This document shows positions 42,001 through 45,000 of a stretch of DNA of 64,000 nt, piece after piece (positions within the stretch are counted from its first letter, which is position 1; each line of letters opens with the position of its first letter). A program made the position numbers. Origin of the DNA: Escherichia coli O127:H6 str. E2348/69 (GTDB lineage: Bacteria > Pseudomonadota > Gammaproteobacteria > Enterobacterales > Enterobacteriaceae); NCBI RefSeq assembly GCF_000026545.1, contig NC_011601.1; one strand, 5' to 3'.

Positions 42001-45000
42001 GCAACAGATGGGTAACGCTATTATGAGGATCCTCGTCAGTAAATTACTGGCAAGGCACTCCGATAAATAAGAATAGGTTCCGCAACAACGTTATATGCAA
42101 ATACCTCACGCTTCGGCTAGATTATCGCCGGCTCTGTTGACGAAATTATGGTTGAAATCTGGAGCTACCACACGTTGTTCTGGCTGGCGATAGGGATGTT
42201 GGGTATTGCAATGATTTGCTTGCTGTTTATTAAAGATATTTAGCTCACCAGTCTGGGCTAAGAAAAATCGGCGTGGCGCAAACTGAGCCATCCTCGCCAT
42301 TTTTGCTATCATGCCTGCATACATAAACGACAAAACAGTATGCAGAGGGAAAAATGGGTTCCACCAGAAAGGGGATGCTGAACGTTCTGATTGCCGCCGT
42401 GTTGTGGGGAAGTTCAGGGGTCTGCGCGCAATACATCATGGAGCAAAGCCAGATGTCGTCGCAGTTTTTGACTATGACGCGTTTGATATTCGCCGGTTTG
42501 ATTCTGCTGACGCTATCATTTGTTCATGGTGATAAAATCTTTTCTATTATTAACAATCACAAAGATGCCATTAGCCTACTGATTTTTTCCGTGGTTGGCG
42601 CGCTAACCGTACAGCTCACTTTTTTGCTAACCATCGAAAAATCGAACGCAGCCACGGCAACGGTGCTGCAATTCCTCTCACCGACTATTATCGTCGCCTG
42701 GTTCTCACTGGTGCGTAAATCCCGCCCGGGCATTCTGGTTTTCTGCGCTATTTTGACATCTCTGATCGGGACTTTTTTATTGGTGACACACGGTAATCCG
42801 ACGTCATTATCGATCTCTCCTGCCGCGTTATTCTGGGGCATTGCCTCGGCATTTGCTGCTGCATTCTATACCACCTATCCCTCAATGCTGATTGCCCGCT
42901 ATGGCACGTTACCGGTCGTCGGCTGGAGTATGCTCATTGGCGGTCTGATCTTGCTGCCCTTTTATGCCGGACAAGGGACAAATTTTGTCGTTAACGGAAG
43001 TTTGATTCTGGCGTTTTTTTATTTGGTGGTCATTGGTACGTCCCTGACATTTAGTCTGTACCTAAAAGGAGCACAATTAATTGGCGGTCCAAAAGCCAGC
43101 ATTTTAAGCTGTGCTGAACCATTAAGTAGCGCGCTGCTCTCTTTGCTGTTGCTGGGGATCACCTTCACATTGCCGGACTGGCTGGGAACGCTGCTGATTC
43201 TGTCATCGGTGATTTTGATTTCAATGGATTCCCGCCGCCGCGCCAGAAAAATAAATCGTCCGGCGCGGCATGAGTGAGAATTACCAGCCAGGCACCGCGC
43301 CACCGTTAAAGATGGTTTCTGCCGCTTTAGCGACTTCGGGTGATTGATAAGATTGCAGAAATTCCTTCACGTTTTCTGCATTCTTATTATCTTCCCGTGC
43401 CACCAGAATATTCACATACGGCGAATTTTTATCTTCAATAAATACGCTGTCGTTAACCGGAGAAAGTCCTGTTTGCTGGATGTAAGTGGTGCTGATAATC
43501 GCTACATCCACTTTCGGGTCGTCCAGTACACGTGGCAACTGTGCCCCTTCCAGCTCCATTATCTGCAAATGGCGTGGATTATCGGTTATATCCAACGCGG
43601 TAGGTAATAACCCTTTTCCCTCTTTCAGAGTAATTAGCTTCTCTTTTTGCAGCAGTAAAAGCGCGCGACCAAGGTTAGTCGGGTCGTTGGGGATCGCCAC
43701 TGTCGCACCTTCTTTTATTTGCGCCACGGTTTTGATTTTTTTGGAATAGCCCGCCATGGGGAAGACAAACGTATTTCCCACCGCTACCAGTTTATAACCA
43801 TGCGTCTGATTATCTTGTTCAAGAAAGGGTCGATGCTGGAAGACGTTCGCATCAAGCTCGCCATGATTTGTCGCATCGTTCGGTAGCAACGAACCGCTAA
43901 ATCCTACCAGTTCAACATCGAGGCCATATTTCTCTTTTGCTACCTTTTTAGCGACTTCCGCGACATCTTGTTCTGCGCCATTAATAACGCCAACTTTAAT
44001 ATGCTTTTCATCGCTGCTGCTCTGGTCGCAACCTGCCAGCAGAACTCCTGCCAGTAATAATGCGGCCCCCGCCCGTAGATGATGTGTTGTCAGTTTCATT
44101 TTTTTATCCTTTTATTAATGATTACCGGACTATAGCGGTAAGGTCGCTGCAGTTTAAAAAACAAAACGCTATCGATAAGAATAAAAAGGAATAAAAGTGG
44201 AATATAAAGTCTGGCACTTCTTACTGACCACGCAAACACCTTTCGTACAGCATGATGAGAGCGGCAAAAGCAAACTACACTTATGCTTCATTCGATGCAC
44301 ATTTGCAGAAGGTTGCCGCTATGAAGCCAACGATGCTACTCATGATTACCGTATTCCTGATTTTTCCAGCCATTTCTCAGGCCGAGTCGCCATTCAGTTC
44401 TCTACAGTCGGCAAAAGAGAAAACCACGGTATTGCAAGATTTACGTAAAATTTGCACGCCACAGGCGTCATTATCCGATGAAGCGTGGGAAAAGTTAATG
44501 TTGTCAGATGAAAACAATAAACAACATATACGCGAGGCCATCGTGGCGATGGAACGTAATAATCAGAGCAATTATTGGGAAGCGTTGGGTAAGGTAGAAT
44601 GCCCGGATATGTAAGAACGGCAACAACCACTGACCAACGCTTCTTTACCTGATATCAGGATTTCTTCATTTTCACCTTTGCAGTTACCAACAATGCAGTC
44701 AGCAACATCAATGTGCCGGACAACATCAGCGGCGAAGTCAGACCAATGTTATCCAACGCATAACCGCCGATTGCCGCACCGCAGGTATTGGCAAGCTGAA
44801 TAACGGCCACCTGAATAGATCCGGCTTTTTCTGCCTGATCGGCCAGTGAGCGAGTGATCCACGTTGACCAGCCAACGGGAATTAAAGCAAAGGTCAGCCC
44901 CCAGATAATCGCCACACCAGTAGCAACAATTTTATCGCTTCCCCACAGCGTCAGTACCAGCGCGCTCAGGGCGAGCACAAACGGTGCGCCCGCTAAGGCC

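Follow-up and report, generated by a model that had tools for sequence, protein, structure and literature searches.

Did the LEE enter the selC site of Escherichia coli E2348/69 as a clean insertion, and if it did not, how was the DNA between selC and yicL lost? Few loci in E. coli have been studied as closely as the LEE at selC, and the setC pseudogene at the edge of the island already stands in the public annotation and is essentially known. An earlier note on this DNA, however, had gone further and proposed that the island replaced about 1 kb of backbone in one block, leaving only the last ~40 codons of setC. We examined the whole stretch of 64 kb that contains the locus, called the window here, and all coordinates refer to it. 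Over the 10 kb at 42000-52000, it matches E2348/69 (O127:H6), the prototype enteropathogenic strain, with 100% identity. Our reading is that the setC remnant is very probably a non-functional relic in two pieces at the right edge of the LEE, which would have been produced by serial deletions, would have a single origin and would have been inherited since. The features on which this reading is built are collected in Table 1.

Table 1. Features of the selC-LEE-yicL region in the window, listed from left to right.
Feature	Coordinates	Strand	Basis and remarks
selC (tRNA-Sec), left anchor of the island	6278-6372	+	ARAGORN; 100% collinear with K-12 selC
15 bp after selC, common to K-12	6373-6387	none	blastn and pairwise view; left LEE/backbone breakpoint after 6387
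LEE island, by absence of K-12 homology	6388-42010	none	35,623 bp
rorf1, final intact LEE gene (SdiA-regulated domain protein)	40517-41335	+	ORF list; RefSeq of E2348/69, RM14723 and O157:H7
yjdJ-like 3' fragment (GNAT acetyltransferase codons 51-90, internal stop)	41683-41799	-	tblastn, blastn
tssB-like 5' fragment with ~120 bp of tssB upstream DNA	41786-42010	-	blastn, tblastn
setC fragment A (K-12 setC nt 172-232, codons 58-77)	42011-42071	+	blastn, tblastn, alignment
setC fragment B (K-12 setC nt 1011-1185, codons 338-394, frame from 42070)	42069-42243	+	blastn, tblastn, TIGR00899
Right-flank haplotype (setC', yicL, nlpA, yicS, part of nepI)	42069-45300	none	sliding mismatch counts
yicL, first intact backbone gene	42354-43277	+	ORF list, RefSeq

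The alignment with K-12 that the earlier note had proposed settles where the backbone stops and starts again. Positions 1-1032 of the K-12 MG1655 locus (L001) align with window 5356-6387 by blastn; homology ends at 6387 and comes back at 42069, which corresponds to setC nt 1011, and the same comparison brings out a separate piece of setC, fragment A, at 42011-42071. The 35,623-bp span free of K-12 homology agrees with the LEE size of 35,624 bp that Elliott et al. reportedly gave in 1998. The last genes of the LEE interval are espG and rorf1, and the G+C content is 0.28-0.43 on the island side of the boundary and 0.46-0.51 on the backbone side.

A tRNA gene does stand at the end of the island, which starts 15 bp past selC. 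The target-site flanks are not otherwise intact: K-12-type DNA is missing in two blocks, one of 792 bp (selC+16 to setC nt 171) and one of 778 bp (setC nt 233-1010), 1,570 bp in total. A distal repeat of the selC 3' end is absent, the 24-nt end being found once in the window with up to 3 mismatches allowed; tblastn with the selC-adjacent integrase of O157:H7 gave no match in the window, and rhuM, which was also sought there, was not found. Since the selC 3' repeat is lacking, no integrase lies in the window and 1.57 kb of K-12-type DNA is gone, the comparison supports the view, in which the earlier note was right, that the LEE here is not a clean site-specific tRNA insertion. In O157:H7, an integrase-bearing element stands in tandem with the LEE: it has selC on one side and, on the other, the selC 3' end in a second copy, after which the LEE follows.

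The hydrophobic frame that ends with the TAG at 42241-42243 upstream of yicL corresponds, as had been suspected, to the C-terminal end of K-12 SetC. By tblastn, SetC residues 338-394 are aligned with 42070-42240 (91% identity, E 8e-27), and the NCBIfam model TIGR00899 (sugar-efflux, SET) is hit over its last positions, 320-375 of 375 (E 4.7e-19); with 68.7 bits, the score is far under the 522-bit cut-off. Because the alignment runs over all of these residues, the 3' remnant, which is real, comprises 57 codons and not ~40; the smaller figure covers only the part after an internal TAG (42118-42120, in frame), which stands in place of Trp354 of K-12, and in that part 38 of 40 residues are identical to K-12 SetC. 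The start of the remnant had likewise been put too far to the right, at 42100, where the true start at 42069/42070 restores the first 30 nt that were left out. RefSeq (PGAP) annotates a pseudogene at exactly 42070-42243, described as 'MFS transporter; internal stop; incomplete; missing N-terminus', and the annotation is identical in three RefSeq genomes (E2348/69, RM14723 and O157:H7).

The claim that neither a start nor any N-terminal portion of setC survives holds for the start codon, but a 61-bp piece of the N-terminal region, fragment A, directly precedes fragment B. It is 87% identical to K-12 setC over 61 bp (8/61 differences; blastn, E 7e-15) and matches SetC residues 58-76 at the protein level (tblastn, E 4e-4); it carries a TAA stop at 42068-42070, and its frame differs from that of fragment B, whose natural stop is the TAG at 42241-42243. 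The two fragments are collinear and in the same orientation, and they lie between selC and yicL on the strand of yicL. What survives is 57 + 20 = 77 of 394 codons with no start codon, in place of a complete ORF of ~390 codons with 12 TM segments. The setC leftover is a pseudogene and not a transporter. No further setC, full-length or partial, was found in the 64-kb window beyond fragments A and B (tblastn, E up to 10), the other matches of SetC in the window being chance or different MFS genes, and K-12 SetC does end with the peptide encoded here.

Fragments A and B meet through an overlap of 2-3 bp (AA/AAG) at 42069-42071, which brings setC nt 232 up against nt 1011. Collinear gene pieces joined at a short microhomology, the hallmark taken for a deletion scar, are thus what is seen at setC nt 232::1011, and setC nt 233-1010 (778 bp) are therefore deleted internally. 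This bears directly on the idea that integration of the LEE at selC deleted one contiguous backbone block of ~1 kb and left the tail of setC behind. Such a single step would account for the loss of K-12 homology 15 bp past selC, for its return inside setC and for the missing selC 3'-end repeat at the far island end. It would not produce two setC pieces with an internal deletion between them, nor scraps of yjdJ-like and tssB-like genes separating the LEE from setC; the missing total of 1,570 bp in two blocks exceeds and divides the ~1 kb that was postulated, and the joint is common to 383 genomes of different lineages. We therefore consider the single-step replacement improbable, and return to serial deletions as the reading to be developed.

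The scraps just mentioned lie in the 675 bp that separate rorf1 from fragment A. The yjdJ-like fragment comprises the last 40 codons of the gene (75% identity over 40 aa; tblastn, E 7e-16), and its DNA homology, which spans 41588-41781 by blastn, is 73-80% identical to E. coli yjdJ; RefSeq places a 'hypothetical protein, frameshifted' at 41729-41835. The coding part of the tssB-like fragment corresponds to approximately codons 1-34 of the type VI sheath protein, is frameshifted and runs from 41890 down to ~41790, with 76.6% identity over 235 nt to the tssB of strain C5 (blastn) and E 8e-10 by tblastn. The two scraps, tssB' and yjdJ', are fused at a short overlap coding for LVA. Neither reaches more than 73-80% identity to any E. 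coli yjdJ or tssB. The LEE islands at pheU and pheV match only the first ~128 bp past rorf1, to ~41463. Full-text searches returned no account of a two-fragment setC stub or of the yjdJ'/tssB' scraps in the literature they covered, which did not include the early descriptions of the junction by McDaniel (1995), Elliott (1998), Perna (1998) and Muller (2009).

From this arrangement, we infer that at least three joints of illegitimate recombination (deletions) are stacked at the right end of the LEE, namely yjdJ'::tssB', tssB-upstream::setC nt 172 and setC nt 232::nt 1011. Several successive deletions are indicated because two collinear setC pieces, and with them two unrelated gene scraps, are found between the last LEE gene and setC. 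The deletions would have removed DNA that formerly lay between the LEE core and setC, and the loss would not be one replacement at the time of insertion.

When and where did the joint arise? In a survey of 5,426 complete E. coli genomes, the joint is spanned in 383, O157:H7 included, and is identical in all of them. The LEE-side 733 bp are present in the same number, 383 of 5,426; therefore, there are no intermediates among these complete genomes, and the order and number of the deletions are read from the anatomy of the locus alone. Nor does any of the 5,426 genomes hold a LEE end with a longer setC. Since all genomes with this LEE end carry the same joint, it was not made in E2348/69 itself, and a single origin followed by inheritance is indicated. 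We propose that the joint formed once, in a genome with the diverged right-flank haplotype that is common in LEE-negative relatives of E2348/69, and that it was then inherited by all lineages with the LEE at selC. It follows that the right boundary of the LEE would be a fixed, inherited scar and not a fresh insertion site. Every genome with the LEE at selC among the complete genomes searched, E2348/69 and O157:H7 among them, is without a working SetC.

That setC belongs to the backbone expected at this place, as the earlier note had assumed, is not borne out, for the DNA before yicL lacks this gene in other Escherichia species, in Citrobacter and in many LEE-negative E. coli. Of the genomes surveyed, ~3,758 retain the 3' half of setC; elsewhere, homology to the window starts at 42285 or 42325, setC being wholly lost, as against 42069 where it is kept. 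In LEE-negative E. coli of this kind, selC is followed by a rhuM of full length, then by a partial repeat of selC, a hypothetical gene and yicL, setC being absent. The region upstream of yicL is without setC in E. whittamii, Escherichia sp. E1V33, Citrobacter and other genera, and in one scan of species-representative genomes with YicL, no species had setC in that position. Thus, setC is a variable occupant of the selC-yicL hot spot and not firm backbone. In K-12, the spacer between selC and setC contains the rhuM pseudogene yicT. With yicT in the spacer and setC variably present, K-12 itself is not a pristine empty site, and caution is called for, as it is unsuitable as an 'empty site' reference at the selC hot spot.

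Two genomes without LEE at the site, Z1323PEC0010 (dog) and Z1322HEC0006 (human), have a full-length setC that is annotated as a pseudogene. In both, setC nt 1-1010 and more than 10 kb leftward are practically identical to K-12 (0-3 mismatches per 400 bp), and nt 1011-1185, including the TAG, together with ~10 kb rightward are identical to E2348/69. The switch of ancestry and the LEE joint are no more than 2 bp apart. These two chimeras are the only full-length genes with the stub allele among the 5,426 complete genomes. The simplest reading would be that recombination brought in a tract from a LEE-positive donor and stopped where homology ends.

The two setC fragments need not share a history. 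Fragment A differs from K-12 at 8/61 positions (13%) and fragment B at 12/175 (7%), a difference that is not significant (Fisher p = 0.18); with A the more diverged, A and B are perhaps not from one gene copy. One could then suppose that fragment A and the yjdJ'/tssB' scraps are passenger DNA from an earlier host of the LEE and that only fragment B is the resident tail. Besides the unequal divergence, the two chimeric full-length genes agree with this, being K-12-identical over nt 172-232 and of the E2348 allele from nt 1011, as do the low identity (73-80%) of the scraps to any E. coli yjdJ or tssB and the genome of Escherichia sp. MOD1-EC7003, in which tssB' stands right beside yicL. On the other hand, the divergence contrast is within what p = 0.18 allows, A and B keep the collinearity and orientation of a single gene, and no donor genome with such a mixed context was found. 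We regard this mixed origin as doubtful.

It is tempting to look further back. The gene yjdJ lies near pheU, another LEE site. In Escherichia sp. MOD1-EC7003, a tssB' scrap of 93.5% identity directly adjoins yicL, an adjacency that hints that a T6SS cluster may once have stood beside yicL. Accordingly, 560 bp within the rorf1-yicL interval, with their yjdJ-like, tssB-like and two setC scraps, might, quite speculatively, be read as a 'travel log' of the selC-type LEE, leading from a host other than E. coli, where the LEE had a pheU-type context, to a T6SS island at selC, then through trimming by serial deletions, and ending with transfer from one E. coli phylogroup to another, exclusively by homologous recombination that took the right flank along. 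If this were true, the ancestry switch at the joint in the two LEE-negative genomes would be a recombination footprint ending at the edge of homology. On any of these readings, the setC pieces, the yjdJ'/tssB' scraps, the 3.2-kb flank and the chimeras offer a modest lead, as markers for how, and how often, the selC-type LEE has moved.

Does the stub do anything? A hydrophobic frame of 31-40 codons (42121/42148-42243) is open, and one may ask whether it is a small membrane-protein gene, or whether the stub has been kept for control signals of yicL. That the frame is strongly hydrophobic and 100% conserved between E2348/69 and O157:H7 would suit such a role, but it is simply the last transmembrane helix of SetC, and it is just as conserved as the entire 3.2-kb flank. 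Its single ATG lies at 42148 and has no Shine-Dalgarno motif ahead of it (GTTGACGAAATTATG), and no promoter-like match lies near this frame; a promoter and terminator scan of 41520-42500 found nothing above shuffled expectation near the stub, and no Rfam family matched over 41000-42600 at E up to 1. As for yicL, 29 bp separate 42325 from its ATG, and LEE-negative genomes of the same haplotype, whose homology to the window begins only at 42325, still keep yicL intact. A function of either kind is thus scarcely credible, and the stub is best explained as inert, with no function indicated, so far as sequence can tell. The consequence would be limited to the loss of SetC in the carriers of the stub.

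The DNA to the right of the joint has a history of its own. From 42069 to ~45300, E2348/69 and O157:H7 are 99.4% identical (0-6 mismatches per 250 bp), and both are ~6% from K-12; near 45319, O157:H7 turns K-12-like and from there differs from E2348/69 at ~10 positions per 250 bp. The left flanks of E2348/69 and O157, at 97.4% identity, have no comparable sharing. A diverged right flank specific to the LEE is ruled out, as identity over 42244-45300 reaches at least 99% in 593 records, LEE-negative genomes among them. It is plausible that the LEE and its right flank were transferred into the O157 lineage by homologous recombination, and the joint would probably have reached that lineage with ~3.2 kb of the right flank; co-transfer is not proven, since LEE-negative genomes have the same haplotype. 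The one YicL scan of species-representative genomes identified no donor species for the flank or the scraps, and we name none because the nearest flanks, those of K-12 and Escherichia sp. MOD1-EC7003, are each ~6% distant.

How does the locus compare with known systems? With the K-12 gene for SetC (yicK; a SET-family MFS sugar-efflux protein), the remnant shares the sequence of fragments A and B and the place directly upstream of yicL. The K-12 gene is complete, whereas E2348/69 has two out-of-frame pieces with one stop each and without the start or the N-terminal half. In K-12, deletion of setC raises, and its overexpression lowers, intracellular arabinose (PMC3429515). The LEE site has been named 'yicK to selC', yicK being setC (bioRxiv 10.1101/549998), and the present locus is the LEE at selC of E2348/69 and O157:H7, with no difference from it.

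The rhuM islet of LEE-negative E. coli, and yicT in K-12, occupy the same hot spot with variable right breakpoints. In the rhuM variants, part of the selC 3' end is still repeated after rhuM; the LEE of E2348/69 has no such repeat.

For spread by recombination, the nearest likeness is the HPI island of E. coli, which, as Schubert et al. are said to have described in 2009, spread with flanking backbone by homologous recombination. What resembles it here is that E2348/69 and O157:H7 have a common joint and a near-identical right flank of ~3.2 kb, with a sharp switch of ancestry at ~45319 in O157:H7. The haplotype occurs in LEE-negative genomes too, however, and the left flank is not shared; spread in this manner is established for the HPI, whereas for the LEE it is only plausible.

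On its right side the LEE of E2348/69 abuts DNA that is held in common with O157:H7. From window 42069 to about 45319 the two strains have a common right-flank haplotype, at 99.4% identity to each other and about 6% from K-12, and in O157:H7 there is a sharp change to K-12-like sequence within nepI (about 45319). This haplotype is also carried by LEE-negative genomes, and 593 records are at least 99% identical to it.

Between rorf1, the last intact LEE gene, and the two-part setC remnant lie two fused gene scraps. The yjdJ-like scrap corresponds to codons 51–90 of a GNAT gene, while the tssB-like scrap comprises codons 1 to about 34 of a type VI sheath gene, plus upstream DNA. 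Their identity to the E. coli copies is only 73–80%. LEE ends of the pheU/pheV type are without these scraps, the common sequence stopping at about 41463.

Coordinates of the features in the window and in the compared loci
Feature	Location	Strand	Remarks
BglG-family antiterminator and PTS IIA gene	window 1-2251 (antiterminator 427-1980)	minus (antiterminator)	adjoining yicI
LEE left end comparison	O157:H7 locus 17985-18833 vs window 6349-7198
Fused yjdJ-like and tssB-like gene scraps	window 41683-42010	minus	between rorf1 and setC pieces
adeD (adenine deaminase)	window about 48071-49839		frameshifted per E2348/69 RefSeq record
Extra element, about 118 bp	window about 51290-51410		uhpT-uhpC spacer
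Full-length chimeric setC pseudogene	Z1323PEC0010 locus 2991-4175		E. coli Z1323PEC0010; second genome Z1322HEC0006
Alternative hot-spot occupant	WP4-S17-ESBL-03 locus 601-3030		LEE-negative E. coli
IS-like end, tssB' homology, yicL side	MOD1-EC7003 contig 1-430		Escherichia sp.

A full-length setC pseudogene of chimeric ancestry was found as well. The part identical to K-12 comprises nt 1–1010 and extends leftward by more than 10 kb; the part identical to E2348/69 comprises nt 1011–1185, including the TAG of the E2348/69 setC stub, and extends rightward by about 10 kb. The change of ancestry lies no more than 2 bp from the LEE joint.

At the selC end of O157:H7, the last 24 nt of selC are duplicated, the second copy preceding the LEE left end, and an integrase/IS/toxin–antitoxin element, arranged in tandem with the LEE, separates it from selC; integrase and rhuM are both absent from the E2348/69 window. 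In WP4-S17-ESBL-03 the selC–yicL hot spot is without setC: selC is followed by full-length rhuM, by 28–32 bp that partly repeat the 3′ end of selC, by a gene for a hypothetical protein of 165 aa and then by yicL. The roughly 43 bp directly after selC are similar to the LEE left end (93.8% identity).

Elsewhere in the window, the antiterminator–PTS IIA pair is not at the corresponding position in K-12 or O157:H7 and was found in 1,601 of 5,426 complete genomes. The uhpT-uhpC spacer element, which K-12, O157:H7 and Z1323PEC0010 all lack, resembles a short repeat of the intergenic type, or a MITE. By eye it reads as an imperfect palindrome (…CTTCAAGCCGCAGG…CCTGCAACTTGAA…); an inverted-repeat scan of it returned no arms of at least 12 nt.

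The tssB′ scrap has a counterpart beside yicL in Escherichia sp. MOD1-EC7003, whose contig opens with an IS-like end. There, 93 nt match window 41866–41958 at 93.5% identity and run straight into the sequence that begins at window 42244, behind the stop of setC, and leads to yicL. The joint is a different one, and setC pieces are absent from it.
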